A DNA stretch of 32,000 nt, taken from Candidatus Heimdallarchaeota archaeon B3_Heim (GTDB lineage Archaea; Asgardarchaeota; Heimdallarchaeia; Hodarchaeales; Hodarchaeaceae). Location: NCBI GenBank assembly GCA_003144275.1, contig NJBF01000005.1, positions 30,001 to 62,000 on the forward strand. The letters run 5' to 3'. The notes below the pieces were generated by a model. The model was not told the origin of the DNA. It saw only the letters and a program-made list of their open reading frames with translations, and made no database searches. Of the stretch, positions 6,620 through 22,773 are shown piece after piece. Every line of letters begins with the position of its first letter. Within the stretch, counting starts at the first letter, position 1. The position numbers and the translations under genes were made by a program.

Positions 6620-6818
6620 GGGAACGTAGCGAAGCTAGTGGACTCGCTAGTTTCTAGCGAGACCGGACAAGTATCGCGCCGGGCTCCAGAACCCCCTGTG
6701 AACTCCACTGGGTTGACTGAAACTCATGATGAAGTTCTGGAAAAATGAGGAAACTCGGTGTCATTCTTGCATGTCGCAAGGTGAACGAAAATCGCCAGTT
6801 CAAATCTGGCCGTTCCCA
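6620..6818 (+). tRNA. trnW: tRNA-Trp(CCA) with three introns (18/19: 6639-6670; 37/38: 6690-6752; 45/46: 6761-6790)
   Basis: Acceptor GGGAACG/CGTTCCC-A, D stem GCGA/TCGC, anticodon stem CCGGG/CTCGG with CT-CCA-G, T arm GCCAG-TTCAAAT-CTGGC. Removing the three inserts gives a canonical D loop AGCTAGGTA and variable loop TGATC. The D-loop splice sites are the least certain (imperfect central helix). Confidence 0.92.
6690..6752 (+). ncRNA. Box C/D guide RNA inside the tRNA-Trp anticodon intron
   Basis: Order is C-like CTGTGA, guide CTGGGTT, D' CTGA, C' ATGATGA, guide GTTCTGGA, D-like ATGA. By the N+5 rule the guides target C39 and C34 of the host pre-tRNA, as known for euryarchaeal tRNA-Trp introns. 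Confidence 0.8.
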
Positions 6819-7156
6819 CTTCCTTTTTTAATGAGATTAAATCTCTCTCGAAAGACTTTCTAATACTTCTACCATAATGTCCAATAGAGACATTGTGCAA
6901 ATGGAGAGATATCCGAAACTGAGCAATTAATCGATTTTAATTTGTTTAAAAACGATTTGATTATTGAGGAGGTAGTTTTAGAGAAAGAAAGCCAATAATG
7001 AGAGATTCGATATTTTAAGTCTTTTTTCTAAAATCAGGAGTTTATAAAAGATGCCCCCAGATGATGGTCCAATCGGTCTTTAGGAATCCACAGGTCGAAT
7101 TACCTGGTTCCCTTCCTTTTTTTTTAGAATGAATCTACAAATAAAAAGAAATATTA

Positions 7157-8666
7157 TTAACTCGCCAATATCGATGGGGATCTCCATTGAAGGTTTTCAC
7201 TGTCGAACCATTGATATCTTAACCTTTGGGGATATAAATACCCCATAACAGGCCAAATAGTCCATTTCATTTCCTTTTCAATCCATTGTACCCATTCTGG
7301 CCACAGTCGTACGTAAAGATATAGATTTTGATCACTAGTAAACAATTGACCAAAGGGAAGCCACTGTATCATTCGTAAAAGCTGTTTGTTAGGTAGTACC
7401 GGTAGTTTAACGAAATATGTATCCAAACTCCATTCATTAAGAAGCCTATGAGACCTGAAACTAACATTCAACACCATTTTACTTTGTAGATCCCTAATTA
7501 AAGATAAATACTTTGGAGTTAGTAGGAATGAAGATTGTAGGTTTGAAAAATTAAGAGGTAAATTCTCTTGAAACCTCACAAAATAGTTTGATTAATTCCT
7601 CTGGTTGATCATGTTGTTTAAAGTTCCAAGTAGAATCAGAGGAGGGAGAGAGAAAAAACTGGGGTAAGTTATTTTTTCGCTTTTTCCTTGGATTTTTTGT
7701 TAGTAATCGCTTAGTTAATACCTTGCGTTGCGTTTTATTTAAATCTCTCCAACCTTTGTCAGGTCTATAAAGAGCTAGAGAATGATGAAGATGAGTTAAG
7801 TTAAGATTCATCATTTCATGTATGATTATCTTTCCCTGTCTATCTTTTTTTTTAAAATAAGCTTTTAGCGAATCATGACATGTAATAGGGGAAGTTAAAA
7901 GCCCGATAAATGAGTTAGAAGTTTCTCTTATATGTAACACATTGCTATTGCAAAGGAGAGTATTTGCACTGTCATGCAAATCTACTACCTCTTTGAGAGA
8001 GATATTCTCTGTTAGTTGAAAATTGATGTAAAAATGCTCTAGATCAAAAGCGTGTCTATAAAAGAAAAGAATAATTCTTATGTCAAGAAGTTTGAAGAAT
8101 GTAGAAACGTCAGGAGCAATTTTTGTCCTATCCCTATTCTTACAATAAACAGTTTTAACGTGTAGAGGATCTAATGCTAAATATCCACTGTTATTAATCT
8201 CAAAAAATAACAATTCCACATTTTGAAGCTGTTCACGTGAAAGAGGAACTTTGAATCTATTATATCTATATTGTAAGGATTCAAAAGCATCTATATCCAG
8301 TAAGGAGGTATAATTATGCACTAATTTGAAAATGGCTCTTAAATTATTAATAATATACGTGTAAAAGTCCTCAGCATGGTATTTAGCTTCCTTCAATATC
8401 AAATTGGCTTTTGTACAGAATTCCCGAGAAAAACATAGGAATGGAGTCTGTAGGTATAGATTTGTTCCTGTATTTTCTTCAATATAATCGTCGAGTCGAG
8501 TTATAAGTTTTTCACGTTGGAATTCGGCTTCTTGGTAATGCATAAGAACTGATGTAAATTTAAATAGAATTTCTTTTTCAATTTTTGTATAATTTTTTGC
8601 GTATAAAGAGATCCTACTTAGTATTGTGTGAATATTATTCCTTAGGATCTCATAGCGTCGAACCAC
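7157..8666 (-). pseudogene. Probable single hypothetical gene split by a frameshift (ORFs 7551-8666 and 7157-7579)
   Basis: Two same-strand ORFs overlap by 29 nt in different frames. The second has only a GTG inside the end of the first, and the junction is next to a T5 run on the coding strand. No function could be assigned. Confidence 0.5.
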
Positions 8667-9160
8667 TCCAGAACCTGTCTTAAAGTTATAAAAGAGATTT
8701 TTCTACCCTTATTAACGAGTTTATTCTGGATATATTTAAACTTTTCATATATTTATATAGGGCTTATAAAATATAGAGAATCGTTACTGAAATAAATATG
8801 GACATTTGAATTAAACCAGCCTCTACTACTATTCTTATTCTTAAGGATAGTATTACATTTTTATCTTGTCTCTATTAACGAAAAACAACTAAGTGAAGAA
8901 GTATATAAACCAAGAATTAGGAATTTATCCAATTCAATCTATTTGCTTCAATTTTGATCTGTGAAATGCGCCCTAGGAATTGGTGAGTACTACAGTAAAC
9001 AGATAAACATCATTAGGAAAAAGCATAAAACAGAAGAAAAGCAGTTCTAGTAGATAGAAAGGCTTCTTTGAAGGCAGAGAAGAAATTCTTGAGCTGCTAC
9101 CAACTAATAAATCTGAACACATTAGTAAATTCATAAGAACGCACTTGGAAGTGACAATTG

Positions 9161-9469
9161 ATGCAATATTTACACGCTGCACTAGTATTACACTCATCAG
9201 GAAAAGGAGTTTCTGAAAAAGGAATAACAGCAATTATTAAAGCGGCTGGTGACAAACCAGACGAAGCTAAGATTAAGGCTTTGGTTTCAACACTTGAATC
9301 ATTAGACATTGATGAAGCCATTAAAGGGGCAAGTTTCATGACAGCAGCTTCACCTGGAACCACAGGCGCAGCAGATACTGGCAAGGAAACTGTCGCTAGT
9401 ACAACAGAACCTGAAGAAGAAGAGGAAGAAGCTGGGGACGATCTCGGTTTATCTTCATTATTCGGTTGA
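9161..9469 (+). CDS. rpl12: 50S ribosomal stalk protein P1 (aP1/L12p)
   Basis: MQYLHAALVLHSSGK, DEAKIKALV..LE..DIDEAI, acidic hinge and C-terminal GLSSLFG. ATG at 9161. Confidence 0.97.
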   Translation: MQYLHAALVLHSSGKGVSEKGITAIIKAAGDKPDEAKIKALVSTLESLDIDEAIKGASFMTAASPGTTGAADTGKETVASTTEPEEEEEEAGDDLGLSSLFG

Positions 9470-9781
9470 AAACTTTCTTTTAACTCCTTTATATTCCCTA
9501 CATGGGCATTGAGTGGCTCATATTCCATAATAGAGCCATTTTCTCTTTCTTTTTACTCTTTTCAATAGAATTTGACTAGCTTTATACAACTTTACAGATA
9601 TTCAGCTTGTTTAAAGTAAAAAAATTCAAATTTCATTGGGATTAAAGGAATCAGATCTAGTAAAGATAAACTAAAATCAGATAAATAAAATGAAAAATAT
9701 AGGAGTTATGAAAAGAATTTTGCATAATAAGCAATAAGTTCTTATCAAGTTATAATCATCTATGACTATAAATAATGTTAA

Positions 9782-9878
9782 GGGCCGATGGTGAAGCTGG
9801 TATCACGCCGCCTTCGCAAGGCGGAGATCGCAAAAATGCGACTGTATCCCCCGAGTTCAAATCTCGGTCGGTCCACCA
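9782..9878 (+). tRNA. trnA: tRNA-Ala(CGC) with a 21-nt variable-loop intron (45/46: 9827-9847) and encoded CCA
   Basis: Acceptor GGGCCGA/TCGGTCC with the G3:U70 Ala determinant, anticodon arm CCGCC-TT-CGC-AA-GGCGG, T arm CCGAG-TTCAAAT-CTCGG, then A-CCA. The intron has central helix GCGG/CTGT, two 3-nt bulges and a TCGCA/TGCGA hairpin. Confidence 0.94.
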
Positions 9879-9914
9879 CATTCATAGTAACAGAAAACCT
9901 TGTATGGAATGTAA

Positions 9915-11003
9915 ATGTCAGTTAAAGAAGAGACCCATAGAAATGAGCTATTAAATAGTGCCAAGCTGGAATTCCGCAATGCTGGGTATACTCTGAGTGA
10001 TAATGATATTAGCTCCTCCTCTTTTGACTTCATAGTGAAGAAGAAGAAAGAAATTCAGACACCTTTGATACCAAAAAAAATGATCATTCGTGTATTAGCT
10101 GAATTAGATTTGTTTAAAAGACACACATCCCAAGAACTTCAGTTAATTGCCAAATTAATTCAAGGAAAACCTTTACTAATAGCAAAATTTGCTACTGGAA
10201 AAAGAATTAAACCAGCCACACTTTATAGACGGCACAATGTTCCTGCTATTTCGTTACAAACTCTAAAATCTTTTCTTCAAGATGAATTATCCAAAAAATC
10301 TCCACAAATTACTAAACTCACAAAGAGAGGGGGTATCTTTGTTAATCTATCAACTTCACGCTTTGTTGAAAGAAGAAAACAGCTTGAGTTGGATATTAGT
10401 CTTTTAGCTGAAAAAATTGGGGTATCACGTCAATCCCTCTATAAATATGAGCGGGGTAAAAGCTCACCTAAATTAGATAGTTACGCTCGTATCTTAGAGA
10501 TCATGGGTATTGATCTTGAACAGCCGATTAACATATTTGAAAAACCTAAAAAATCTACAGATGACTTAGATTTTACAATCAAAGAACTTTGTAAACCTAA
10601 ATCACAACGGCAAAAAGAAATCACAGGTTACCTTCAAGAAAAAGAGATCCGGATTTTATGGTTAAGACAAGAACCAGTTGATGGCATCATTGTTAACGAA
10701 CAAAGAGAGATTATCGACAAGAGGGAAATAAATCCGGGAAACTCAATTGTCACAGGGGTTTCTTCAACAAACGAGGAAAAAGACCATGATCGTCTCCTCT
10801 TACTAAACAAACTCGCACGCTTCTTAGGAAAAAAGGCAATTTGGTTTGAGGATGAAGAGTCTGACAAAGAATCGAAATTTATTAAGACTACGGATTTTTT
10901 TACAATATTGACTATTTCTGATTTAGAACATATGGGAAATGAAGAACTATTAAAATCTTTGAAATTATCGGGCACTTCTCAACAAACTAAATCCAAACGT
11001 TGA
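9915..11003 (+). CDS. Archaeal HTH-type transcriptional regulator (COG1395-like, Xre/Cro HTH)
   Basis: N-terminal nuclease-like fold (SSFDFIVKK, LYRRHNVPAIS), RGGIFVNL, and central HTH LAEKIGVSRQSLYKYERG. Confidence 0.85.
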   Translation: MSVKEETHRNELLNSAKLEFRNAGYTLSDNDISSSSFDFIVKKKKEIQTPLIPKKMIIRVLAELDLFKRHTSQELQLIAKLIQGKPLLIAKFATGKRIKPATLYRRHNVPAISLQTLKSFLQDELSKKSPQITKLTKRGGIFVNLSTSRFVERRKQLELDISLLAEKIGVSRQSLYKYERGKSSPKLDSYARILEIMGIDLEQPINIFEKPKKSTDDLDFTIKELCKPKSQRQKEITGYLQEKEIRILWLRQEPVDGIIVNEQREIIDKREINPGNSIVTGVSSTNEEKDHDRLLLLNKLARFLGKKAIWFEDEESDKESKFIKTTDFFTILTISDLEHMGNEELLKSLKLSGTSQQTKSKR

Positions 11004-11006
11004 GAA

Positions 11007-11280
11007 GGATTCTTGAATTCATGACTATATTTGTCAGATAATGCAGTAAAACTGCGTTCTGGACAGGATGAGTCACACATCCGCTATCCGGCAGGTTAGC
11101 AACAAGAGAATTGTTGCTTTCCATTGGGACTACTTGAATCAGACCTGCTTGCGACATCCCGAACACTAGGGAATTTCGACCAGATTGGGGCATTCTTCCA
11201 TTACCTTTGACGGGTAACTCGTCTAACGAAGTTACAAGGGAATATGACCTAAGAGCTATGTGTATTTTTTTGTCATCACT
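11007..11280. ncRNA. Putative structured RNA of unknown class
   Basis: Dense set of stems in an otherwise AT-rich spacer: GCAGT/ACTGC, GGATG/CATCC, GCAGGT/ACCTGC, AGCAACAA/TTGTTGCT, TCCC/GGGA, GTAAC/GTTAC and TCTGG/CCAGA. The strand is unresolved. Confidence 0.45.
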
Positions 11281-11315
11281 TCGGGGTTGAAGAAGTAAAG
11301 GAGGGAGGCCCTTTA

Positions 11316-11527
11316 ATGATGTTAGAGAGAGAAGTCAGCAAATACGAGAAGATTTACTTTGTCAGACAAAAATGATCCTACTTATAGAAAGGAAATTAAA
11401 ACCTATTCATTTGACCCCGTATCGTACAATTACAGACATTGTCAACCCTGAATGGGAAGATATTAAGTTTCCAATAAAATTTAGGGAAAAACATCAAAAC
11501 CAACAAAGATACTTTGATAATCGGTAA
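11316..11527 (+). other. Two ATGA-overlapping small ORFs (11316-11375, 19 aa; 11372-11527, 51 aa) or one frameshifted small gene
   Basis: GGAGGGAGG at 11300-11308 precedes ATG 11316. Its TGA overlaps the next ATG after an A5 run. Confidence 0.3.
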
Positions 11528-11573
11528 AGAGATTTGAATAAATAGTCTTGGATGATTGATAGAGGAATATAAT

Positions 11574-12026
11574 ATGTCTAAAAAAGAAAATGAACAAGAA
11601 GAAACAAAAGGGTCATCAATACCGTGGATTCCAGGCTTTAAAAGGCCAACAATTGATTTTAAAAGGCCAACATTCGAACTTCCCTATGAGGCACCTCATA
11701 AATACATTATATTCATTATCGTTCTTTCTACTATATTTATATTGGCAGGAGGTATATATAATATAGCAGAAAATCCTTTACCTATGGGACAAACATCAAC
11801 TGCGCTCGTACCTGTATTCCAATCGCCGAGTGAACAATTTCTGATAGAGTCTCTGATTGCTGCTCTTTTTTTTGGCCTTGGAGCAGGTGGCCTTTTCATG
11901 ATCAGGTACTCAACACGTTTTGCATATGATGCTAGGACATCCATCACCCTCTTAATCCTTGGAATTACTCTTACCATCGTCGCTGCTGGTGGGACTGTAA
12001 TTATGTACGACTTCAAAACAAGCTAG
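11574..12026 (+). CDS. Oligosaccharyltransferase subunit OSTC/DC2-like (OST3/OST6 family), eukaryotic signature protein
   Basis: About 150 aa with 3 TM helices. AGGIYNIAENPLPMG and EQFLIESLIAALFFGLGAGGLFMI parallel human DC2 TGGIIYDVIVEPPSVG and [24 protein letters not shown] (recalled). ATG 11574 follows GAGG. Confidence 0.85.
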   Translation: MSKKENEQEETKGSSIPWIPGFKRPTIDFKRPTFELPYEAPHKYIIFIIVLSTIFILAGGIYNIAENPLPMGQTSTALVPVFQSPSEQFLIESLIAALFFGLGAGGLFMIRYSTRFAYDARTSITLLILGITLTIVAAGGTVIMYDFKTS

Positions 12027-12047
12027 AAAATTCTAATCGTCCGTTTT

Positions 12048-12231
12048 GCCGGGGTTTCTGTCTCTAACGAGGTTCATTCAGATCCTCAACGACCCGATAG
12101 CCAAGCGGACGGGATTATAATTAATAATGCCCTGTATTACGGCGCTGGCCTTGAGACCTCAATATTCAAAAATTCAGGTTAGATAGCCAGTGTACATTAT
12201 GTACTCGAGGGTTCAAATCCCTCCCCCGGCG
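12048..12231 (+). tRNA. trnS: tRNA-Ser(TGA) with three introns (8/9: 12056-12098; 20a/20b: 12111-12137; 37/38: 12156-12184)
   Basis: Acceptor GCCGGGG/CCCCGGC-G (G73), D stem GCC/GGC, anticodon stem CTGGC/GCCAG with CT-TGA-G, long variable arm GTACA/TGTAC, T arm GAGGG-TTCAAAT-CCCTC. Each insert has BHB geometry. Confidence 0.93.
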
Positions 12232-12397
12232 TTTTAATATGAATATGGAGGGAATATTCATCCTAGCATCGATCACTCATAATTTAGATACTACTTGGAC
12301 GATAAAGGGAAGCTTCTAAGGAGGTAGAACGAAAACCAATAATCCTTTTAACCCCAAATTATTCACCCCAACTGAACATTCTAGCAACAAGAATTGC

Positions 12398-12733
12398 ATG
12401 GATATACTGGAGAAAGAAATTTTGGTATCCGTAGCGCGTATTCGGTTAATGAGCACTGATGTTGAACAATTAGACGGCATTTGTAAAGAAATGAAGAGGA
12501 TTGCAGACAAGTCTGGGGTAAAAATGAGAGGCCCAATCCCTTTACCAACAAAGAAATTACGATTGCCCGTTAGAAAATCGCCCAGTGGACAAGGAACAGC
12601 GACTTGGGAGGATTATGAACTTCGTATACATAAAAGGTTGATCGATATAGATGCCGATGACCGGACTATGAGACAGATAATCCGATTAAATGTTTCTCGC
12701 ACTATTTTTGTTGAAATTGAATTACGTACTTAA
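12398..12733 (+). CDS. rps10: 30S ribosomal protein S10 (uS10)
   Basis: ARIRLMST, GPIPLPTKKL...RKSPSGQGTATWEDYELRIHKRLID. The true start may be about 8 codons downstream. Confidence 0.97.
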   Translation: MDILEKEILVSVARIRLMSTDVEQLDGICKEMKRIADKSGVKMRGPIPLPTKKLRLPVRKSPSGQGTATWEDYELRIHKRLIDIDADDRTMRQIIRLNVSRTIFVEIELRT

Positions 12734-12749
12734 ACTGAAGGAATAGATT

Positions 12750-13325: not shown

Positions 13326-13424
13326 AAAATTTACATCCGTTTTCTTTTTTATAACACACATATTCGTGTAAGTTTTACTGAATATCCGCTTAAGCCTTTT
13401 TAATCAAAATGGTCATTGGAAATT

Positions 13425-14762
13425 CTAATTAGAAAATAATTCGTGTACTATTCCCACAGCGATTGTACTTCCAGAATGCCGTAAGATTATCCGTCCTAAT
13501 TCGGCATAGTCTGTGAATTTTTCTACTACAAGCGGAGTATTAATAAGTAAATCCACTTCTACTAACTCCCCCTCGAACGCTATAGTTATCCGTCCCTCAA
13601 ATTCTCTCTGTAATTTTTTATATTTGGGACTCTTATTCAGAATTTTCGTAATTTGCTCAATCTGAGCAGTAGAATAGGACGCACCACAATGGAAGACTAC
13701 TGAAGATCCTGGAACAAATGTACCTTCTAGAATTAAAAGGCGAGAGCGAATTTTAACGCCGAATTGATATTCTGTATTTTTCGGAGCTAAAACTATTCCT
13801 TCTCCCAAAATATCTTTGGGTAAATTCCTTAATAATACTGATCCATGTTCTCCTGGATTTAGAGCTTCTTGTTTTTCATCCTCCACCCATAATTCTTTGA
13901 TTTCTGATTCTATCCCTTGGGGGAGAATTTTAACTTTTTCACCCGATTTAAGTTGTTGACTGAGTGCTTTTCCTAAGAGAAATGTCCCAAATCCATGTCT
14001 CTCAATAATATCGTAACCAACGAATCGCATTTCCATATTTTTCTCATACTTTACTCCTTTCAACGAATTTAAAGCTTCTAATAATGTATAACCGTCATAC
14101 CACTCCATTTGACGGGAGTGTTCTGATAAATTCTCCCCAGCTAATCCGCTAATGGGAATAAATGGAATACTTTCAATTTGTTGGGTCCAAGGAGATTGGA
14201 TCTCCCGAAAGAGTTGTTTTATTTTATCAACTGCCTCGTGATACCGATCTTGTCTATACTCGACTTGATCCATTTTATTGATAGCAATGATAACTTGATT
14301 GATTCCCAATACAGAGGCTAAAATAGCATGTTCTCTTGTCTGACCTCCAGGATCTTGGTAACCTCCTACTTTCAATCCTGATTTCAAATCATTGGGGACA
14401 GCACTAATTACCAAAACACAAGCGTCAGCTTGAGAAGCTCCTCGTATCATATTCTTTACAAAGTCCCGATGACCAGGTGAATCAATTAGCATAAATTTTC
14501 TTTGCTCTGTTTCAAAAGGATAGAAGGCAATATCAGAAGTAATACCTCGCTGCTTTTCCTCAGGTAGCGTATCAAGTACGTAAGCCCACTTCCATGATTC
14601 CATTTGATGTTCAATAGCCTCTTCCTCCAATTTTTCTATCGTACGAACATCAATAGCGCCGATCTGAGATAAAAGATGACCTAATGTTGTAGATTTGCCA
14701 TGATCCACATGGCCAATCCATATTAAAGATATAGTTGGCTTAGAATTAACCATAAGTATCAC
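13425..14762 (-). CDS. EF-1alpha-family translational GTPase, paralog 2 (eRF3/Hbs1-like domains II-III)
   Basis: G1 GHVDHGKST, G2 RGIT, G3 DSPGH, G4 NKMD, G5 ISG, and GQTREH. Domains II-III are divergent and lack the EF-1alpha SIEMHH/GDNIGF motifs. Start is GTG 14762 or ATG 14753. Confidence 0.9.
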   Translation of the reverse strand: MILMVNSKPTISLIWIGHVDHGKSTTLGHLLSQIGAIDVRTIEKLEEEAIEHQMESWKWAYVLDTLPEEKQRGITSDIAFYPFETEQRKFMLIDSPGHRDFVKNMIRGASQADACVLVISAVPNDLKSGLKVGGYQDPGGQTREHAILASVLGINQVIIAINKMDQVEYRQDRYHEAVDKIKQLFREIQSPWTQQIESIPFIPISGLAGENLSEHSRQMEWYDGYTLLEALNSLKGVKYEKNMEMRFVGYDIIERHGFGTFLLGKALSQQLKSGEKVKILPQGIESEIKELWVEDEKQEALNPGEHGSVLLRNLPKDILGEGIVLAPKNTEYQFGVKIRSRLLILEGTFVPGSSVVFHCGASYSTAQIEQITKILNKSPKYKKLQREFEGRITIAFEGELVEVDLLINTPLVVEKFTDYAELGRIILRHSGSTIAVGIVHELFSN

Positions 14763-14816
14763 TGCCTGAAATTAGGCTGAAAGGAAAAAAGAAAAAGAAA
14801 TTGAGAAAGAAAAAGT

Positions 14817-16346
14817 TTAGGAGGCGTATTTATTTCTTTCGACTTTTTGGACTACTCCAACAGCAACTGTTTTTCCTGAATCGCGGAGTGCAAATCGTCC
14901 AAGAGCTGGAGTTTTGGTGATTGGCTCCACCACTAAAGGTGTTAAAGGAGTCATCCAAACCATACCCCTCTCACCTTGACCCAGATTATCCTGTTCTTGA
15001 ACCGCAGTCACACGGCATGCAACTTGTGCAGTTCCACAGTGAACCACAGGAGAGTAGTTTTCATGAATTCCCCAGGCTTCGTCTTTCTTCTTAGCTTTTT
15101 TACCTAGTCCTCTGACCACGAGTACCAATGATAAAAATCCGTCCACATTTGGTTTTAAAGCTTCTGCTGGATCCGCCGGATCACTCACGACAGCACCGCG
15201 TATAATATCATTCGCACCTATATTTTTTGTTTTAATGTTGAAACCGATATTGTCTCCTGGCATTGCTTGCGGAATATCTTTGTGAAATTCTTGAATTGAC
15301 TTCACAGTAATTGGTACTGGTGCAATATCTTGTTTTGTAGGGGAAATTACCATCTCTGAATTCGGTTTTAGTACTCCAGTAGAAAGTCTTCCAGTTAGGA
15401 CTGTCCCTACGCCACTTATATTGAGTGTTTGTTGAATTGGTAATCGGATTGCTTGTTTTGCCAACGCGTCTTTACGAATGGCTGGTGATTCCAAAACATC
15501 AAGCGAATCAACGAGGGATGGTCCATCATACCATGATAAACCTTCAAAACCTGCTTTTATGTCCTCAATCTCTTTTTGTAACGATTCAATGAATTCAGGA
15601 TCTGCATTTCCAGCTTTTGCTGCAGATACATGTCCTTCTAAGTTTTTCACTGAATTTTCTTTAGAGAGAAGATTCACACCTACTAATCCACTAGTGGGAA
15701 CATATTTAATTGCTTCTAAACGGGCCTCTTTGTTCTCTATTTGTAATGCGGACATTAATTGAGTAAAGATAGTATGAATTGCAGTTTTGATTTGCTCATA
15801 TCTTTCCTTACCCCAGTCAACAACGTCCATTTTATTGATAGCTACAACAATATTTGTAACTCCAAGTGAAGTTAGGAGAAGCATATGCTCTGTTGTCATA
15901 CCTATAACGTTAGCATATTTTCCAGAAGCGGTTCCAGCGACTTTGGTTCCGTCTTCGAATTCTCCTTTTCTTGCAGATACAACTAAAATAGCGGCATCTG
16001 CTTGAGAAGCGCCGGTAATCATATTTTTTATAAAATCACTATGGCCTGGAGCATCGATTAAGTTATAGATGAATTTCTTGGTCTTAAATTCTTGGAAAGA
16101 TATGTTAATTGTGAGACCTCGTTCTCTTTCATCCATCAGAGGATCCAAAATCCAGGCGTACGACCAGCTACCCATGCCCGTAGCTTTGCTTTCTTTATAG
16201 TATTTTTCAGCAATTCGCCAAGGTTGTCGTTTCTTTTTAGGATCATGTATCTGACCTAGTAAGAACAACATGTGGCCAAGACCGGTAGATTTTCCGTGAT
16301 CAACGTGTCCTGTGACCACTAAATTCATTCTTTCGAGATCTGCCAT
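14817..16346 (-). CDS. tuf: Elongation factor 1-alpha, divergent, with insertions (paralog 1)
   Basis: GHVDHGKST, ERERGLTI, DAPGHSDFIKNMITGASQAD, NKMD, RLPIQ...GVGTVLTGR..TGVLKP, PGDNIGFN, LGRFALRDSGKTVAVG. At 509 aa it is longer than typical aEF1A because of three insertions. Confidence 0.88.
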   Translation of the reverse strand: MADLERMNLVVTGHVDHGKSTGLGHMLFLLGQIHDPKKKRQPWRIAEKYYKESKATGMGSWSYAWILDPLMDERERGLTINISFQEFKTKKFIYNLIDAPGHSDFIKNMITGASQADAAILVVSARKGEFEDGTKVAGTASGKYANVIGMTTEHMLLLTSLGVTNIVVAINKMDVVDWGKERYEQIKTAIHTIFTQLMSALQIENKEARLEAIKYVPTSGLVGVNLLSKENSVKNLEGHVSAAKAGNADPEFIESLQKEIEDIKAGFEGLSWYDGPSLVDSLDVLESPAIRKDALAKQAIRLPIQQTLNISGVGTVLTGRLSTGVLKPNSEMVISPTKQDIAPVPITVKSIQEFHKDIPQAMPGDNIGFNIKTKNIGANDIIRGAVVSDPADPAEALKPNVDGFLSLVLVVRGLGKKAKKKDEAWGIHENYSPVVHCGTAQVACRVTAVQEQDNLGQGERGMVWMTPLTPLVVEPITKTPALGRFALRDSGKTVAVGVVQKVERNKYAS

Positions 16347-16924
16347 TATTATTCACCAGAATATTATTTATTTACTTTTGTATAGGATTAATTAAACACA
16401 AAATATCATTAAAATTGGTTTTAATCCTAAGAAACAGCGAAACAAAAAACTATTTATCTCATTTTGCTTTAGTTTGCTAGCAAATATTCGTACTAAAATA
16501 AGAAGATAATTGAATTCTATTTTACAAACAGCTAACTTCTCTAAAAATCGATAATTCGAACTCTAATCTTTGATAAAGCATCATTCGGCTCATTTTTTTA
16601 TAGTCTTCCGAGCAAAGATGTCCTCCATATTTACCAGAGACGGAAAATATTCAAGTTATACTTTTACAATATGATTCTTGTACTCTTGAGTATTTTTTCA
16701 CAGAAACTGGGAGAGAAGTCTGACTTCAGCTTTTTTTGGGATTCTATAAAGATGGGGCAAGTTTGGGGGATGAGGTTATATAAGATGAGCCCCCCGCAAG
16801 ATCACCCACCAGGATTTTAATTGAAAAAACTTTACTAATTTTGAGTAACTCTCTTTTCCTCCTCTTTTTTTATTCTTAGATGTAAATTTTCAGATAAACA
16901 GATTGTATACAGAGCTTTTTTCGA

Positions 16925-17926
16925 CTAGTATAACTGGACTAATGGTTTTGCTAATAATAGATAATGTTCTCTCAGGGTAAATTCAGCAATTTCTAAGATT
17001 TCTGATAATTTCTTTTGGGTCAGTACACCACGTCTACTTTGCCTTAAGTAGCACTCAGGAAAGACCTTATGCCTTGCTAATAGAATATCTGCTGCATTTA
17101 TCATTGCAGCAGCCAATATGAATGGATTCCGTCCACCTCGTTTTGTTAACGGGAAACGATTCAGCAATTGTTTTGCCACAACTTTTAGATACTGAAAAAA
17201 TTCCTCACGATTACTGGTCCTTTTTAGTATAGCACTTCTAAGAAGATAGTCTTTCTGAATTCTTCCTATTATCGCATCAAGGTATTCTTCAGACTTCACA
17301 TGCCTGACTCTAATCTTAACATATTGTCGTATTAAAGATGCTGATCTTATAATGTCTTTACCTGCTATTGAGTACCCGTTGATTTGTACTGCTTTTACTA
17401 GTCTATTTAACTCAATATTTTCTTTTCTTGTTCGTACCGCTAAATATAACGCTCCCATTATTAGGCAAGATAGCTTCATTTTCTTTTTTAACTGGAGGTG
17501 AACTTTTTGGAATAGAAAGAGGGTATCTGCTTTTGTAGCGTCGGTTAATTCAAGATTACTACAAACTCGGGATAATAAACTGAATCCTCTATATTCTCGC
17601 TGACGGCCATTGAAATGTAAGTAGATGTCATTTATTGACTTTAATCTCCGATATTGAAGTTTCTTTGCAAGCGCCAATTGGGTACCAGAGGAGTCCACAA
17701 AATTTTTTTTTTGAAAAGATCCAATAAATGTTCCTAGGGTTTTCATTCTGCTAGGTTGTTCGCTTATTGAGGCATACTGACTTCCATAGCTACCTTCGGA
17801 ACTTATTAGTTGAATAGGCGGTTTTTCATAGATTTGCTGGGCAATTAATCCACAATTTACACATACAACGTCCGAATCTGTTTGTATTAAATTTCCATTG
17901 CACTCTAGGCACTTATACTTCATCAT
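16925..17926 (-). CDS. Transcription initiation factor IIB (TFB) family paralog
   Basis: Zn ribbon CLECNG...VCVNCGLI at ATG 17926, two cyclin-like repeats (GRNPFILAAA) and a C-terminal HTH TQKKLSEILEIAEFTLREHY. Confidence 0.85.
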   Translation of the reverse strand: MMKYKCLECNGNLIQTDSDVVCVNCGLIAQQIYEKPPIQLISSEGSYGSQYASISEQPSRMKTLGTFIGSFQKKNFVDSSGTQLALAKKLQYRRLKSINDIYLHFNGRQREYRGFSLLSRVCSNLELTDATKADTLFLFQKVHLQLKKKMKLSCLIMGALYLAVRTRKENIELNRLVKAVQINGYSIAGKDIIRSASLIRQYVKIRVRHVKSEEYLDAIIGRIQKDYLLRSAILKRTSNREEFFQYLKVVAKQLLNRFPLTKRGGRNPFILAAAMINAADILLARHKVFPECYLRQSRRGVLTQKKLSEILEIAEFTLREHYLLLAKPLVQLY

Positions 17927-18173
17927 ATTCACAGGTAGAATACGATATATACTAATATCTAAACTAAATATAGAATGAGAGACATATATGAAAATGAAGC
18001 TCTTTGATTTTACCAATCAACAGGGCAAGCGTGCTAGTATACAGTTTCATTTATATTCAAACGAGAAGATGGGGGAGAATTATTATGAAAATATAAAAGG
18101 CAAACACCCCCCAAAAAAAAATAACTTAAAATGAATTATTTCCGCAAATGATAATGCTAGAGGAATAAAACTG

Positions 18174-18776
18174 ATGAAAAGACAAGTGGAAGGATCAAAA
18201 AAAGGAAAAAGATTTCCACCCAGAAATAAACAGGGAATAGGTAAAGTTCTTGTCTTAGATTATTACCCTCAGGGTAAATCATTAAGTCGGAGATCTGCTG
18301 AAGCTTATAATCCGTTGGCAGTTGTAATTTCGATCAATCGTTTGGCGTTTTTTGATATAATTCTTTCCAGAGGAAAAAATATTCAAGCAGGTCAAACGTT
18401 AGATGTTTCTGCAATAAAATCAGATTTATTAAAAATAAATAGAATAGGATTTAATGAATTATCAGATTCTGCTGTGGATATTCTTCCTGAAATGATTAAA
18501 AAAATCGTAATACTATCAGAATCCAGATTCATCAATTTTTTAAATCATGCTCGTCCATTAACTACTCAAATGCATCAACTTCAACTATTACCAGGCATAG
18601 GAAATAAACGTCTTTGGCAAATTCTTGAAGCACGAAGAAAAATAGAATTCAAAGATCTCGATGATTTCACAGAAAGAACTGGGATCTCGGATCCAATTGG
18701 CTTATTTTCAAATCGAATCCTACAAGAGATCCAGGGAAAAGAAAAATATCAGCTTTTTATCCAAAAACAGAAATGA
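18174..18776 (+). CDS. DUF655 family nucleic-acid-binding protein (COG1491)
   Basis: VLDYYPQG, FINFLNHARPLTTQMHQLQLLPGIGNKRLWQILEAR. It lies upstream of ksgA, the usual archaeal context. Confidence 0.92.
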   Translation: MKRQVEGSKKGKRFPPRNKQGIGKVLVLDYYPQGKSLSRRSAEAYNPLAVVISINRLAFFDIILSRGKNIQAGQTLDVSAIKSDLLKINRIGFNELSDSAVDILPEMIKKIVILSESRFINFLNHARPLTTQMHQLQLLPGIGNKRLWQILEARRKIEFKDLDDFTERTGISDPIGLFSNRILQEIQGKEKYQLFIQKQK

Positions 18777-18782
18777 TTTAGT

Positions 18783-19682
18783 TTGAACCGCTTCCACTTT
18801 CTAAACGAGGGTGACTTGAAGAATTACACTCAATCAATACTCACCGATTACGCTATCACTCCCCATAAACCACATGGTCAAAATTTTGTTGTTAAAAAAG
18901 AACTAGTTGAAAAGATCCTTTCATCTGCACAGATTAAAGATAATGAGACAATCGTAGAGATTGGGGGAGGTATTGGAACTTTGACCTACTATTTATTACA
19001 AAATGCAAAAAATGTTATAACTTATGAAATCGATCCGATATTGGCTTCTGTGCTTAAAAAAGAATTTTTTTCTTATAATAAGCGATTAAAGGTTATTTCA
19101 GGTGATTTTCTCAAAAAAAAAGATATTCCCAAAGGAAAAATCGTTTCTAATCTTCCATATTCAATTTCCTCCCCCGTAATATGGAAGATTTCAAATTTAC
19201 TTGATCCTCCCAAGGTAGTAGTACTTACCCTTCAGGAAGAATTCGCTAATCATCTGTGTGCAGAAGTAAGTACGAAGCAGTATAGCAGATTATCTGTCTT
19301 CTCATCTTATTTCTATAAATTTGAGAAAATTACTACTCTTTCATCTGATTATTTCTTTCCTAAACCTCAAGTATCTTCATGCCTTGTGCGAGGAGTACTC
19401 ATTGAATCATCAGATATCGTTAGAGAAAAATCATTTTTTGTTTTTTTAACGGCACTTTTCTGTCGAAAAAATAAGAAAGCACGTAATAATTTGATGGTCT
19501 ATCAAAAAAAGCTGGATTCTAGATTCAGAGTTAAATATCGAAATCTTCTCGATTCCCTAGAATTATCTCAAAAAAAGCCGATTCATATTTCACCTGATGA
19601 AATCGTAGCATTTTACTTAGATTACCGTCAGATGATTGAGGAGAATTTTGAAATTAAGAATTTCAGCGATTTTATTGAATAA
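18783..19682 (+). CDS. rsmA: 16S rRNA m6,2A dimethyltransferase KsgA/Dim1
   Basis: GQNF, VEIGGGIGTLT, YEID, VSNLPYSISSP, QEEFA, YSRLSV, PKPQVSS. Confidence 0.96.
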   Translation: MNRFHFLNEGDLKNYTQSILTDYAITPHKPHGQNFVVKKELVEKILSSAQIKDNETIVEIGGGIGTLTYYLLQNAKNVITYEIDPILASVLKKEFFSYNKRLKVISGDFLKKKDIPKGKIVSNLPYSISSPVIWKISNLLDPPKVVVLTLQEEFANHLCAEVSTKQYSRLSVFSSYFYKFEKITTLSSDYFFPKPQVSSCLVRGVLIESSDIVREKSFFVFLTALFCRKNKKARNNLMVYQKKLDSRFRVKYRNLLDSLELSQKKPIHISPDEIVAFYLDYRQMIEENFEIKNFSDFIE

Positions 19683-19950
19683 AAGGATAAATTAAGGGAA
19701 GTCCCGCAAAAAAAAATGGAACTGTAACAATCATAAATGTAATTCCTGTAGCTACAATATTTAACTCAATTTCTTTTTTATTCCGAACCATCCTATCCCC
19801 AAGACGAATTAATAACATTATAAGTGAAATCGCTCGGACTAACCAAGCGATTAAGACTAGCAAAGTCCATAAGATCTGATCTCCAGATTCGATAAGAAGT
19901 TGCCACCCTCTTATATAGTCGTCCCACTGGCTTAAATAGTAAATAAGCAT
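19672..19950 (-). CDS. Small hypothetical membrane protein (2 TM)
   Basis: 92 aa with two hydrophobic helices separated by RLGDRMVRNKK. Its stop overlaps the end of ksgA convergently. Confidence 0.6.
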   Translation of the reverse strand: MLIYYLSQWDDYIRGWQLLIESGDQILWTLLVLIAWLVRAISLIMLLIRLGDRMVRNKKEIELNIVATGITFMIVTVPFFFAGLPLIYPFIQ

Positions 19951-20535
19951 CTAAAACACCATGAACAAACCAATATAGTGTGTACAGTCTTACTTATAAT
20001 CTCCCAAATTCATTGAATAAAAACAAATAGTGGATTAAAAATCCCTTAAAAGATTTCATCTTGATGGATATGAAGTAGTTCTTTTAGATCAATCTTATCC
20101 TTTCTTTATCGATACAGAAAAGATGTTAAATGGATGGATTTGTGAAAAATAGTTGGGGTTGGTTTAGATGAAATCAATCACAAATCTCCCCTTTTCAGAC
20201 TACGTGTATTCTAGATGTACAAAGCTGCTTGAATTCTCTAACATTTGGAATTCAATTAAGAGATTATTAATTATGGTGTTCCGATATTATATTAATTAGC
20301 GAATGTTTCCATTAAATCGTCTTTAATTCATTTTAAACAGATAAAACACCAATTCACTCAAAAAGAAACCAGATACAGAAAAAAACATTTAAAGATAACT
20401 CAAGTGTTGCCAAACTGGACATAATAACGTAATTTTACCCTCATGACGGATAAAGAAGAATTATCCTCGTGTAATTTTACGTTCAACCTTAATAGATTAT
20501 ATTAAATTAACTAATTAAGCAGCAGGTGGACAATA

Positions 20536-21336
20536 ATGGAACTAGAGATAATAGAACAGCATGAGAATTATGTGAAGTTTGTTCTCTCTGGTATTACTCC
20601 TACTTTCGCAAATACCTTACGTCGACTTATAATAAGTGAGGTACCGACTATGGCGATCGATGAGGTAATTATCATTGAAAATACAACCCCTCTTTACGAC
20701 GAAATTGTAGCACATCGTCTTGGTCTCCTACCTCTTAAAACAGATCTAGCTAGTTACGATTTACCTACAGAATGTGAATGTGGGGGACAAGGCTGTACTT
20801 CATGTGAAGTATCGTTAACTCTAGAGGTATTAGGAGAAAAGGATATTGAAATTGTATATTCAAATAGCCTATTATCGCAAGATCCAAAAATTGCACCAGT
20901 TTTCCTGAACATCCCGATTTTGAAAATGGCAAAGAATCAAAAAATCTTTCTCGAAGCAATAGCAAGATTAGGGCGTGGAATGGAACATGCAAAATGGCAA
21001 CCAACATCTACAGTTTCATATAAATACTACCCAATTGTCAAATTCAATGAAAAAAACTGCACTTACTGCGGGGAATGCGTGGAAGTATGTCCTCGTGATA
21101 TAATTAAAATTGAAAATGGAAAAATTTACGCAGAAAATGTTATCAACTGCAGTCTCTGCAATCAATGTGTAGATATCTGTGAAACCGATGCTGTTTTTGT
21201 CTCAACAACAGGAACAGACTTTATTTTCACCGTGGAAAGCACAGGTGCTCTCAGTACGAAAGATATATTACTTAAGGCTCTCAAAATATTAAATGAGAAA
21301 GCAAACGAATTTAAAGTTTATGTTGAAGAATTTTAG
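20536..21336 (+). CDS. rpo3: DNA-directed RNA polymerase subunit Rpo3 (D)
   Basis: ANTLRR..ISEVPTMAID, ENTTPLYDEIVAHRLGLLP, EHAKWQP, and a ferredoxin-like insertion with two CxxCxxCxxxC motifs. Confidence 0.97.
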   Translation: MELEIIEQHENYVKFVLSGITPTFANTLRRLIISEVPTMAIDEVIIIENTTPLYDEIVAHRLGLLPLKTDLASYDLPTECECGGQGCTSCEVSLTLEVLGEKDIEIVYSNSLLSQDPKIAPVFLNIPILKMAKNQKIFLEAIARLGRGMEHAKWQPTSTVSYKYYPIVKFNEKNCTYCGECVEVCPRDIIKIENGKIYAENVINCSLCNQCVDICETDAVFVSTTGTDFIFTVESTGALSTKDILLKALKILNEKANEFKVYVEEF

Positions 21337-21344
21337 AAGGGATA

Positions 21345-21710
21345 TTGTTGAAAACAGGTACAAGAACTGACCCAAACAAAACTTCATTAATTAGATCAAT
21401 TAATCAGGTAGGGATACAGAACAAGGCGAATATTTGGAGAAGATTAAGTAAAGAACTCTCATCTGCTAACAGAAATCGCATTGCAATTAACCTATCTCAT
21501 ATTAATAGAGTGTCCTCTCCCGGGGATGTAATAGTCGTTCCAGGAAAAATCCTAGGAGCAGGAATATTAAGGCATAAATTGAGTATAGCCGCAGAAAGTT
21601 TCTCTGAATCTGCAAAAGAAAAGATTCTTTCAATAGGTGGTCAATGTCTATCGTTTGAAGAACTTATTAAGACCAATCCAAAAGGTACCAATGTTCGACT
21701 ACTGAAATAA
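21345..21710 (+). CDS. rpl18e: 50S ribosomal protein L18e (eL18)
   Basis: ANIWRRLSKELS, INLSHINR, VVPGKILGAG, NPKGTNVRLL. Confidence 0.96.
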   Translation: MLKTGTRTDPNKTSLIRSINQVGIQNKANIWRRLSKELSSANRNRIAINLSHINRVSSPGDVIVVPGKILGAGILRHKLSIAAESFSESAKEKILSIGGQCLSFEELIKTNPKGTNVRLLK

Positions 21711-21718
21711 CAAATGGA

Positions 21719-22165
21719 ATGAGGAAAATGAACGATATTACAATTGATGACTCAAAAATCATAAATGCTGAAGATACAATTATCGGACGATTAGCTAGTA
21801 TAGTAGCTAAACGATTATTATCTGGGGAAAAAATCATAATAGTAAATGCAGAGAAAGCCTTAATTTCAGGCAATCCTGGTTCAGTTGCTAAAAAATATCT
21901 CGATCGGTATCATATTAAAACGAAATCAAATCCTTTGCAAGGTCCCTTCAATCCTAGAAAACCTGACCAGATATTAAAAAGGACCGTAAGAGGGATGCTT
22001 CCATACAAAAAAAGCAGAGGTAAAGAGGCATACAAGCGGTTAAAGGTATTTAACAGCTTACCAGGATTATTTAAAGATCAAGAACTTGAAGTTCCAAGTG
22101 GTACTCTGCTTAACAACCCAAAATCCTCCTATATATCATTAGGAGAATTGAATAAAAAGATATGA
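21719..22165 (+). CDS. rpl13: 50S ribosomal protein L13 (uL13)
   Basis: INAEDTIIGRLASIVAKRLL, GPFNPRKPDQILKRTVRGMLP. Confidence 0.97.
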   Translation: MRKMNDITIDDSKIINAEDTIIGRLASIVAKRLLSGEKIIIVNAEKALISGNPGSVAKKYLDRYHIKTKSNPLQGPFNPRKPDQILKRTVRGMLPYKKSRGKEAYKRLKVFNSLPGLFKDQELEVPSGTLLNNPKSSYISLGELNKKI

Positions 22166-22175
22166 AGGGATTATT

Positions 22176-22577
22176 TTGAAAAGTCTACTACGAAGTGGAA
22201 AACGAAGAACGGCAATTGCTCGTGCAATAATCAAAGAAGGAAAGGGTAGAGTATTAATTAATGGTAAACCTATAGAGATTATTGAACCAGAATTTGTGAG
22301 AATGAAGTTACTTGAACCACTATATTTTCTGGATAAGAAAATCAAAAATAAAATTGAAATAAAGGTTAAAGTTAAAGGTGGTGGGTTTATGGGTCAGGCT
22401 GATGCCGCTAGAACTGCAATCGCTAGAGCAATTTTAGCTTGGACTGATTCGGAAGCATTACGTGTAAAATTCATGAATTATGACAGACATATGATTGTTG
22501 GTGATCCAAGAAGAAGAGAGCCAAAGCATTTCGGAGGCCCTGGAGCACGTGCAAAATATACAAAGAGTTATCGATAA
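22176..22577 (+). CDS. rps9: 30S ribosomal protein S9 (uS9)
   Basis: GKRRTAIARA, VKGGGFMGQADAARTAIARA, DPRRREPKHFGGPGARAKYTKSYR. Confidence 0.98.
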   Translation: MKSLLRSGKRRTAIARAIIKEGKGRVLINGKPIEIIEPEFVRMKLLEPLYFLDKKIKNKIEIKVKVKGGGFMGQADAARTAIARAILAWTDSEALRVKFMNYDRHMIVGDPRRREPKHFGGPGARAKYTKSYR

Positions 22578-22638
22578 TCCATAACCTTTATTTAATCAAG
22601 TATAACGAAGATAGATGTCATTTTAGTGGAATATTGTT

Positions 22639-22773
22639 GGGCCCATGGCTTAGCCTGGTTAAAGCGCTCGGCGTTCAGAAGTTTTTCTGGACGGGTGATG
22701 CTGATAACGCAACTGGTTTCCCAGGCTGCCGATAGAAACCGAGAGATCCCCGGTTCAAATCCGGGTGGGCCCA
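22639..22773 (+). tRNA. trnI: tRNA-Ile(GAT) with two introns (30/31: 22671-22699; 37/38: 22707-22737)
   Basis: Acceptor GGGCCCA/TGGGCCC-A, D arm GCTT-AGCCTGGTTA-AAGC, spliced anticodon arm CTCGG-CT-GAT-AA-CCGAG, variable loop AGATC, T arm CCCGG-TTCAAAT-CCGGG. The first intron forms a strict BHB (CGCT/GGTG). Confidence 0.94.

Follow-up and report, generated by a model that had tools for sequence, protein, structure and literature searches.

Nine introns in four tRNA genes of a Hodarchaeales archaeon, including a box C/D guide predicted to target C34 of tRNA-Trp

Four tRNA-like loci in the window, the 32,000-nt stretch of DNA that was analysed, are broken up by nine short inserts, and this raises the question of whether they are working genes whose inserts are spliced from the transcripts. 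The reading favored here, with a probability of roughly 0.93, is that they are four functional, single-copy Hodarchaeales tRNA genes with bulge-helix-bulge (BHB) introns, spliced by the pathway proposed below. The source is a metagenome-assembled genome of 103 contigs (94% complete, 3.9% contamination) that the first-pass annotation had taken for a probable Asgard archaeon and that is assigned, more specifically, to the Hodarchaeales. All nine intron positions named in that annotation were confirmed, six of them at non-canonical sites, for a load of 2.25 introns per gene across the Trp, Ala, Ser and Ile genes. Its claim that removal restores a canonical cloverleaf held as well: following in-silico splicing, ARAGORN read intron-free Trp(cca) of 74 nt, Ala(cgc) of 73 nt, Ser(tga) of 85 nt and Ile(gat) of 75 nt, all of which fold as canonical cloverleaves and have the right identity elements, among them the Ala G3:U70 pair and, in Ser, a long variable arm. 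No further tRNA gene was found in the window by a scan for T-arms and acceptor stems. Across the genome about 27 of about 42 tRNA genes are interrupted, a figure that is a rough lower bound.

The tRNA-Trp(CCA) gene (6620-6818, 199 nt; all features described here lie on the forward strand) is the sole Trp tRNA gene found in the genome, and conservation of the locus extends to at least 17 sister genomes. Its exons (6620-6638, 6671-6689, 6753-6760 and 6791-6818) are separated by intron 1 (6639-6670, 32 nt), which divides G18 from G19 in the D loop (18/19), intron 2 (6690-6752, 63 nt) at the canonical 37/38 site, and intron 3 (6761-6790, 30 nt) at 45/46 in the variable loop. In an alignment of 15 species pairing reaches 100% in the intron-spanning stems of the cloverleaf, 96.9% of cells pair (34-43% in slid controls), and both-side changes occur in 13 pairs, a number matched by none of 500 shuffles. 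Intron 1 forms a long hairpin with both-side changes in 7 of its 10 pairs across species, and its variable nucleotides start and stop precisely at both junctions when sister species are compared. The hairpin of intron 3 also co-varies, and its central helix with exon positions 40-43 carries two compensatory changes, with co-variation at 40-41; this helix has three of four pairs in the present genome and all four in most sister species. Intron 2 is almost invariant in the 15 species, in contrast to introns 1 and 3. Among the sister species no intron-less orthologue was found for any of the three Trp introns.

The tRNA-Ala(CGC) gene (9782-9875; exons 9782-9826 and 9848-9875), recognized unspliced by both ARAGORN and Rfam and in spliced form by ARAGORN, holds a single 21-nt intron at 45/46 (9827-9847) with a 5-bp hairpin and a full central helix (4/4) that includes two G-U pairs. 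CCA is encoded directly after this gene. The tRNA-Ser(UGA) gene (12048-12231, 184 nt; exons 12048-12055, 12099-12110, 12138-12155 and 12185-12231), which has orthologues in sister species, contains three introns. The first (12056-12098, 43 nt) lies at 8/9 and has a strict BHB (4/4) in which the acceptor-stem CGGG pairs with CCCG; the second (12111-12137, 27 nt) lies at 20a/20b in the D loop, with GCGG/CUGU as its central helix (4/4); the third (12156-12184, 29 nt), at the canonical 37/38 site, has a central helix of 3/4 and the anticodon stem as outer helix. The tRNA-Ile(GAU) gene (22639-22773; exons 22639-22670, 22700-22706 and 22738-22773), found unspliced by Rfam and in spliced form by ARAGORN, is interrupted inside the anticodon stem at 30/31 (22671-22699, 29 nt; central helix 4/4, 9-bp hairpin) and at the canonical 37/38 site (22707-22737, 31 nt; central helix 3/4).

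Intron boundaries and BHB geometry are directly observed. Four introns have 4/4 pairs in the central helix and another four have 3/4; the remaining one, the relaxed motif of Trp intron 1, has 2/4. At boundaries displaced by as many as 8 nt, the average is 1.47 pairs and the probability of three or more is 0.145. The strict or relaxed geometry proposed at first pass is borne out by this comparison, with at least three of four pairs in 8 of 9 introns versus 14.5% of shifted boundaries. The 3' bulge reads A-[A/U]|N in all nine. Trp intron 1 forms only two of the four pairs and four other introns carry one mismatch; cleavage therefore relies on the broad specificity predicted for the splicing endonuclease.

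The genes for the splicing enzymes are present. The genome encodes two EndA paralogues, an alpha subunit with the Y/H/K triad and a beta subunit in which Ala replaces the catalytic His, as well as RtcB. The alpha subunit can be aligned over its full length, gap-free, with that of Aeropyrum pernix (3P1Z_B; 8.5e-43), and its K39 falls on K44 of the latter, the conserved lysine of the Crenarchaea-specific loop (L1) defined in PMC5829648. By these alignments the enzyme is of crenarchaeal type, probably an (alpha-beta)2 heterotetramer. The beta subunit is nearer to the EndA units of M. kandleri and M. jannaschii (8e-24) than to A. pernix beta (2e-3). The broad-specificity architecture anticipated by the first-pass annotation is encoded, with the loop lysine in alpha and a His-less beta. 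Its further suggestion that EndA lies near the TSEN lineage is not supported by the scores of alpha, which are 150 bits to A. pernix alpha versus 49 bits to human Sen34 and 32 bits to Sen2.

Comparison with about 20 sister species, in which exons are almost invariant and introns diverge with hairpins retained through compensatory changes, also reveals natural intron-less alleles that fit the predicted junctions to the base at Ala 45/46, Ser 8/9, Ile 30/31 and Ile 37/38. More specifically, Ala 45/46 is uninterrupted in two sister genomes (L075 and L088), with exon ends in exact agreement with the predicted junction, and in other sister species the identical site holds a 32-nt intron. The Ser 8/9 intron is absent from four sister species, which have an uninterrupted GCCGGGG-U-A-GCC; the 20a/20b intron is present in every Ser orthologue, with conserved flanks and a variable hairpin, and no intron-less orthologue was found among the sister species for either Ser 20a/20b or Ser 37/38. 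Among 13 orthologues the Ile exons show 100% identity. Four sister species lack the 30/31 intron and have a continuous anticodon stem, and the 37/38 intron is limited to this genome and two close relatives, the ten other orthologues being intron-free with the sequence CUGAUAA-CCGAG.

Within one genus, Ile introns are located at 13/14, 30/31, 37/38 or in the variable region and Ala introns in the D arm, at 37/38 or at 45/46; over the sister species about 15 different intron positions are used in the four genes, whose exons stay identical. This variation within a genus does not support the single lineage-wide intron burst that had been suggested, and the distribution looks like continuing gain and loss. 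Introns at different sites showed no similarity of transposition type, their likeness being confined to the exon-pairing part. The genus offers many natural pairs of intron presence and absence in identical exon contexts, and is suited to the study of gain and loss of BHB introns.

Transcript data bear on the Trp locus, contigs of which occur in four metatranscriptomes from four studies. These contigs are mostly unspliced, with precursor and contaminating DNA both possible as sources, and no exon-exon joint was seen among them. One starts exactly at 6671 and one ends exactly at 6790; ends lie at 6760 and 6790, and three ends are at or within one base of predicted cut sites. Such ends are only hints of cleavage. 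One further contig, of 151 nt, runs from 6732 to 6760, then from 6639 to 6760, then ends in T, which amounts to a 121-nt cycle plus k-1 letters. It is a circular permutation in which the 5' cut of intron 3 is joined to the first base of intron 1. Its short side has 28-29 letters, under the tool's own threshold of 31, and its junction has a 2-nt GT overlap, at which template switching is an alternative source. The contig may represent a 121-nt circle in which intron 1 of pre-tRNA-Trp is followed by exon 2, the C/D intron and exon 3. The contig ends and this permuted contig are the only support for the inferred cleavage and ligation in vivo. A bolder proposal, that tRNA introns are still mobile in this genus and that multi-intron precursors yield exon-containing circular RNAs when non-adjacent EndA cuts are ligated, is doubtful and is put forward tentatively. 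If true, it would include the first evidence at the transcript level that an Asgard archaeon cleaves at 18/19 and 45/46, and the circles would be an archaeal counterpart of back-splicing.

RNA contigs that span unspliced sequence, with joints absent, could also be taken to mean that the inserts are transcribed and remain part of the mature RNA, as expansion segments and not introns. This is very improbable, because the inserts at Ile 30/31, Ser 8/9 and every 37/38 site interrupt stems or the anticodon loop, and a kept insert would destroy decoding. Moreover, four of the inserts are each missing from sister species with identical exons, and the contig ends and permuted contig match predicted cut sites.

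A second alternative is that the loci are decaying pseudogenes split by insertions, with working tRNAs encoded elsewhere, and the behavior of standard gene finders might seem to favor it. In the unspliced window default ARAGORN reports Ala only, the Rfam tRNA model Ala and Ile only, and ARAGORN -i mistypes Ile as Ser(aga); the Trp and Ser genes are found by none of the three. The first-pass expectation that standard annotators miss such genes is thereby upheld, since three of the four are missed or mistyped by ARAGORN and Rfam. For the genome as a whole common tools count 16, 26 or 34 tRNA genes versus at least 42, and tRNA inventories of such genomes are badly under-called. The assembly is, moreover, only 94% complete. 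Nevertheless, intact intron-free copies, which together with silent loci the first-pass annotation had regarded as fatal to its own reading, are missing: no second copy of Trp(CCA), Ala(CGC), Ser(UGA) or Ile(GAU) was found in this 94%-complete assembly. Exons are invariant and stems change in compensatory fashion over at least 15 species, closed genomes included, BHB motifs are far commoner at the insert boundaries than at shifted ones, and the loci are present in RNA libraries. Pseudogene decay is already largely refuted and very unlikely. Least probable of all are assembly artefacts or chimeric joins, which a 103-contig genome with 3.9% contamination might invite, since identical architecture with graded divergence recurs in many independent assemblies, among them the single-contig G009 (4.9 Mb) and G006.

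Under the preferred reading of four functional, intron-bearing genes, a long precursor would be transcribed from each gene and would fold locally into strict or relaxed BHB motifs at the nine sites. The predicted (alpha-beta)2 endonuclease would then cleave within every 3-nt bulge, with the loop lysine of alpha, as in Aeropyrum EndA, permitting cleavage at non-canonical sites, and RtcB would ligate the exons and circularize the excised pieces. Before or during splicing, a box C/D RNP assembled on the 63-nt Trp intron would methylate the C34 ribose.

This last step draws on the content of Trp intron 2. The intron contains a degenerate box C (CUGUGA, 6696-6701), a box D' (CUGA, 6717-6720; C, U and G invariant and A nearly so in 15 species), a box C' (AUGAUGA, 6726-6732; unchanged in 15 of 15 species), a 12-nt guide (6733-6744; core invariant in 15 species) and a box D variant (AUGA, 6745-6748; ACGA in one species), of which box C, the guide and box D were identified by reading the sequence. 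Conserved canonical motifs occupy the internal positions, C' and D', and degenerate ones the terminal positions, C and D; the C'-to-D spacer is exactly 12 nt. Box D is followed by GG, which could pair with a CC that precedes box C. Guide positions 6734-6741 form an 8-bp duplex with 6685-6692 (U33 to intron nucleotide 3), in which C34 (6686) faces G6740, the fifth nucleotide upstream of box D. Judged by this pairing and by its conservation, the 37/38 intron probably acts as a box C/D guide directed at C34, and Cm34 is its predicted product. The D' guide shows no complementarity near position 39, and no conserved target was found for it in four genomes. Fibrillarin, the methyltransferase of C/D RNPs, is encoded in the genome (271 bits).

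The novelty that had been claimed for dense non-canonical introns and for the EndA type does not stand, by a condition that the first-pass annotation had itself set, namely that equally dense introns of this kind were already on record. Multi-intron tRNA genes were described for Atabeyarchaeia and Freyarchaeia by Valentin-Alvarado et al. 2024 (PMC11291895) and, in the available text of a 2026 preprint, in a 90-genome census of Asgard archaea (bioRxiv 10.64898/2026.10.13.758758); an (alpha-beta)2 EndA bearing the L1 loop was reported for Asgard in 2018 (PMC5829648). Since the kind of system, the type of enzyme and the difficulty of annotation are all in the literature, the present finding adds a lineage and detail but no new principle.

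The closest counterpart of the guide is that of Haloferax volcanii, studied by Clouet d'Orval 2001 and Singh 2004. As those studies are described in PMC7714728 and PMC3326292, it too is a C/D guide encoded in the canonical 37/38 tRNA-Trp intron and targets C34 by the fifth-nucleotide rule with a duplex that includes intron bases; the excised tRNA-Trp intron is a stable circle in other archaea, according to the same sources. Unlike the Haloferax intron (about 105 nt), the intron described here has 63 nt, degenerate terminal C and D boxes with canonical C'/D', and a conserved D' guide for which no target was found in place of a position-39 guide. The predicted endonuclease resembles that of Aeropyrum pernix (PDB 3P1Z, 3AJV) in the catalytic Y/H/K and loop lysine of alpha and in its separate non-catalytic beta; it differs in a beta closer to the M. 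kandleri and M. jannaschii units. Thermoproteales (Sugahara 2008 and Fujishima 2010, cited by PMC11291895 and bioRxiv 10.64898/2026.10.13.758758) likewise have up to three introns per tRNA gene at varied positions, which depend on an (alpha-beta)2 EndA that bears the Crenarchaea-specific loop, but belong to another phylum; a further point of difference is that no transposition-type similarity between intron sites was seen in the present genes. Known Asgard multi-intron genes, as these sources describe them, are the nearest match, with several short BHB-type introns per gene, many non-canonical and prominent in the D arm, under-calling by annotators, repeated gains and not one burst, and two EndA paralogues in most genomes. 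The Hodarchaeales are not named in the available text of the 2026 census, which gives several Heimdallarchaeia lineages less than one insert per gene, versus 2.25 in the four genes described here. Heavy, position-variable interruption of tRNA genes now extends to this lineage, which papers cited in the same text place closest to eukaryotes.

The four tRNA genes of the window, all on the plus strand, are split by introns, as the first-pass annotation had correctly described. With the coordinates fixed, all nine introns match their claimed positions exactly: those of Trp (6620-6818) lie at 18/19, 37/38 and 45/46, that of Ala (9782-9875) at 45/46, those of Ser (12048-12231) at 8/9, 20a/20b and 37/38, and those of Ile (22639-22773) at 30/31 and 37/38. 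Their removal had been said to yield canonical tRNAs, and after in-silico splicing all four are called intron-free by ARAGORN: Trp(CCA) with a product of 74 nt, Ala(CGC) with 73 nt and the G3:U70 identity pair, Ser(UGA) with 85 nt and a long variable arm, and Ile(GAU) with 75 nt. The expectation that standard annotators would miss such genes also holds. Given the unspliced window, ARAGORN at default settings calls a single tRNA, Ala(CGC) at 9782-9878, and the Rfam tRNA model finds two of the four, Ala, whose variable region holds 24 inserted nt, and a second match at 22639-22773 with 66 surplus bases within the anticodon arm. The Trp and Ser genes appear there only as G+C-rich islands in a background of 33% G+C, with acceptor and T arms that are clean on inspection by eye. 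No further tRNA gene was found in the window by a genome-wide scan for T arm plus acceptor. An ab initio solver combining bulge-helix-bulge (BHB) candidates with a cloverleaf score was correct only for Ala and failed on relaxed motifs; it was excluded from the tRNA gene census.

Three lines of evidence agree that the inserts are introns: their geometry, comparative sequence and natural intron-less alleles. Under the BHB rule used (central helix of 4 bp, bulges of 3 nt, cut following the second bulge base), all four pairs of the central helix form in four introns (Ala, Ser 8/9, Ser 20a/20b and Ile 30/31), three of four in four more and two of four in Trp 18/19. The claim of strict or relaxed BHB geometry is thus upheld at three or more pairs in eight of the nine, Trp 18/19 having two. 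Control boundaries moved by up to 8 nt give a mean of 1.47 pairs, with at least three pairs in 14.5%. The 3' bulges read A-(A/U)/cut/N in all nine introns, and this uniformity at the 3' splice site may be a recognition preference of the tRNA splicing endonuclease (EndA) of this organism. The A-then-A/U bulge stands at intron ends 6670, 6752, 6790, 9847, 12098, 12137, 12184, 22699 and 22737; the 5' bulges are without comparable regularity. Minimum free energy folds of the precursors make the intron hairpins visible and leave the BHB geometry undecided.

Whole-genome searches for the four loci among about 20 congeneric species found them syntenic in most, with near-invariant exons in contrast to diverging introns. 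In a 15-species alignment of Trp, the four cloverleaf stems that span introns are 100% paired. The structure tested has 39 pairs, counting those of the two intron hairpins; both partners change in 13 of them, a number reached by 0 of 500 shuffles, and slid controls are paired in just 34-43% of cells. Compensatory changes occur at seven of the ten pairs of the D-loop intron hairpin, and the 45/46 intron shows covariation between its central helix and exon positions 40 and 41. Intron-less alleles cross the predicted junction directly at Ala 45/46 (absent in two sister species, where the gene is 76 nt versus 97 nt here), Ile 37/38 (absent in 10 of 13 orthologues), Ile 30/31 (absent in four) and Ser 8/9 (absent in four sister species). 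The three Trp introns, Ser 20a/20b and Ser 37/38 are conserved throughout the genus, across which no intron-less alleles of them were found. The exact mature Trp patterns E1-E2 and E2-E3-E4 have 0 matches each in metagenome contigs; thus neither an intron-less Trp allele nor an assembled mature tRNA was found there.

Intron-free copies elsewhere, an objection raised by the first-pass annotation, were not found: BLAST searches with the four mature tRNAs hit these loci only in the genome (3.95 Mb, 94% complete), and neither ARAGORN, Rfam nor the scan for T arm plus acceptor reveals a second Trp tRNA in the genome. Because these loci are the only copies found and no other Trp tRNA is detected, it is very unlikely that the inserts are retained in RNA, that the loci are pseudogenes or that the inserts are assembly artefacts. 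Across the genome, default ARAGORN lists 16 tRNA genes, ARAGORN -i 34 (several mistyped) and Rfam 26. Combining these lists with the scan, which misses genes with T-loop introns, gives about 42 genes, of which about 27 exceed compact tRNA length by some 1,300 nt altogether, all of these figures being rough lower bounds. The Trp and Ser genes of the window are the longest tRNA genes found.

Public RNA data add a hint of processing. Sequence words from the Trp locus are present in twelve runs on record as RNA, and contigs were examined in four runs from four studies (k=31 graph). The majority of the Trp-locus RNA contigs carry unspliced sequence, and no exon-exon joints were seen in the contigs of these four metatranscriptomes, where short, modified tRNAs are not expected as contigs. 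A 151-nt contig from one metatranscriptome run (X29) runs in the order 6732-6760, 6639-6760 and one further T, its first 30 letters being identical to its last 30. It is a circular permutation of a 121-nt segment comprising intron 1 (6639-6670), exon 2, intron 2 (6690-6752, 63 nt) and exon 3. Such identical ends are expected from a 121-nt cycle in a k=31 graph and also from rolling-circle cDNA of a circle. At the junction, 6760, which immediately precedes the 5' cut of intron 3 (6761-6790), is followed by 6639, where intron 1 begins, with a one-base ambiguity of placement. A second contig begins precisely at 6671, the 3' cut site of intron 1, and extends into the 3' trailer, and a third has 6790, the final base of intron 3, as its exact end. 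The permuted contig would represent an exon-containing circle, made by ligating cut sites that are not neighbours. A BHB between the two joined sites themselves was rejected, since the tetramers flanking them do not pair. Because contig ends are weak evidence and the permuted contig's short side falls slightly below the 31-letter rule, junction and ends together are only suggestive of cutting at the non-canonical sites in vivo.

A lineage-wide intron burst, as initially proposed, is not borne out, since intron positions differ between species of one genus and, on sequence comparison, appear to reflect repeated gain and loss. In Ile(GAU) the intron lies at 13/14 in one species, at 30/31 in nine and in the variable region in three; the combination of 30/31 and 37/38 is shared by this genome with two close relatives. 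Ala(CGC) carries at 45/46 an intron of 21 nt, one of 32 nt or none, and has a D-arm intron in three species and a 37/38 intron in one. Ser(UGA) has gained a T-loop intron in some species. At the orthologous Ile(GAU) loci L056 (sister-species genome G001) and L057-L059 (G010, G005, G011), the exons are identical and the single intron occupies either 13/14 or the variable region rather than 30/31 or 37/38. Two sister species have four introns within one tRNA-Trp gene (L018 and L019, in G004 and G005), the fourth, of about 31-33 nt, lying in the T loop downstream of UUCAAA. Ala 45/46 and Ser 20a/20b have in common the exon GCGG-A and the intron 3' end CUGUAU; transposition between them was rejected, the likeness being confined to bases obliged to pair with the exon.

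The Trp 37/38 intron is, unlike the other introns, almost invariant in sequence genus-wide, and is a predicted box C/D guide. A degenerate box C (CUGUGA, 6696-6701) and box D' (CUGA, 6717-6720) are separated by 15 nt; box C' (AUGAUGA, 6726-6732) comes after a further 5 nt, and the guide (6733-6744) fills the space of exactly 12 nt between it and a variant box D (AUGA, 6745-6748). Guide bases 6734-6741 pair with the stretch from U33 to the third intron base, so placed that C34 is faced by the fifth nucleotide upstream of box D. A matching arrangement is on record for the tRNA-Trp intron of Haloferax volcanii, where it directs 2'-O-methylation at both C34 and U39; in Sulfolobus the Trp intron is known as a stable circle (PMC7714728, PMC3326292). 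The position-39 guide of Haloferax volcanii is, however, absent here. The D' guide (6702-6716) is near-invariant across the genus; neither the pre-tRNA nor four genomes yielded a target for it, genome matches not exceeding the frequency of a reversed-pattern control, and two perfect extra matches were discarded as lying in non-homologous DNA outside RNA families. A helix in which CUCAU, preceding box C', would pair with AUGAG at box D was likewise rejected, variants in three species being uncompensated.

The genome encodes two EndA paralogues, on a contig other than that of the window, together with RtcB ligase and fibrillarin. The 182-aa protein aligns without gaps, end to end, with the catalytic alpha subunit of Aeropyrum pernix (3P1Z_B, E = 8.5e-43) and keeps the Tyr/His/Lys triad. 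Its Lys39 aligns with Lys44 of the Crenarchaea-specific loop; loop and lysine have been linked to broad substrate specificity, and the loop is already known in Asgard EndAs (Kaneta et al., PMC5829648). The 215-aa paralogue has Ala at the catalytic His position, which would fit a structural beta subunit. An alpha with the loop lysine beside a beta lacking the catalytic His points to the broad-specificity type of EndA that had been anticipated. The suggested closeness to the eukaryotic TSEN lineage finds no such backing: the alpha scores 49 bits with human Sen34 and 32 with Sen2, versus 150 with the crenarchaeal alpha. Its relatives in Candidatus Hodarchaeota / Heimdallarchaeota, at identities up to 98%, place the supposed Asgard genome in Hodarchaeales.

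The window also holds a non-coding repeat of about 360 bp (11019-11377) with at least 20 copies in the genome at 74-85% identity, many of which terminate in GGATGAGTCACACAT; it has no match in Rfam and looks like a MITE or other small mobile element. On the minus strand, 13425-14762 and 14817-16346 encode adjacent paralogous GTPases of the EF-Tu/EF1A family (445 and 509 aa), and 24299-27823 and 27915-29390 are large ORFs (1174 and 491 aa) with no Pfam match at E <= 0.001.

No paper on tRNA introns in Hodarchaeales came up in a literature search. Introns have been reported in 92-95% of the tRNA genes of Atabeyarchaeia and Freyarchaeia, many of them non-canonical or multiple and some seen only on manual inspection (Valentin-Alvarado et al. 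2024, PMC11291895). A motif-free census of 90 Asgard genomes (preprint, October 2026, 10.64898/2026.10.13.758758), as far as its accessible text goes, gives the share of inserts missed by tRNAscan-SE as 25-30%, mostly in the D arm, and describes repeated gains with enrichment at BHB motifs, two EndA paralogues in 44 of 60 genomes and less than one insert per gene in several Heimdallarchaeia lineages; Hodarchaeales are absent by name from that portion of its main text. The present finding is thus a new lineage-level example, both the phenomenon and the enzyme type being already published. Its modest additions are the within-genus presence/absence pairs of introns, a conserved, putative C/D guide in the Trp intron of an Asgard lineage and a first hint, from public RNA data, of cutting at non-canonical sites. 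The repeated gain and loss suggested here agrees with the conclusion of that census, as stated in its accessible text.
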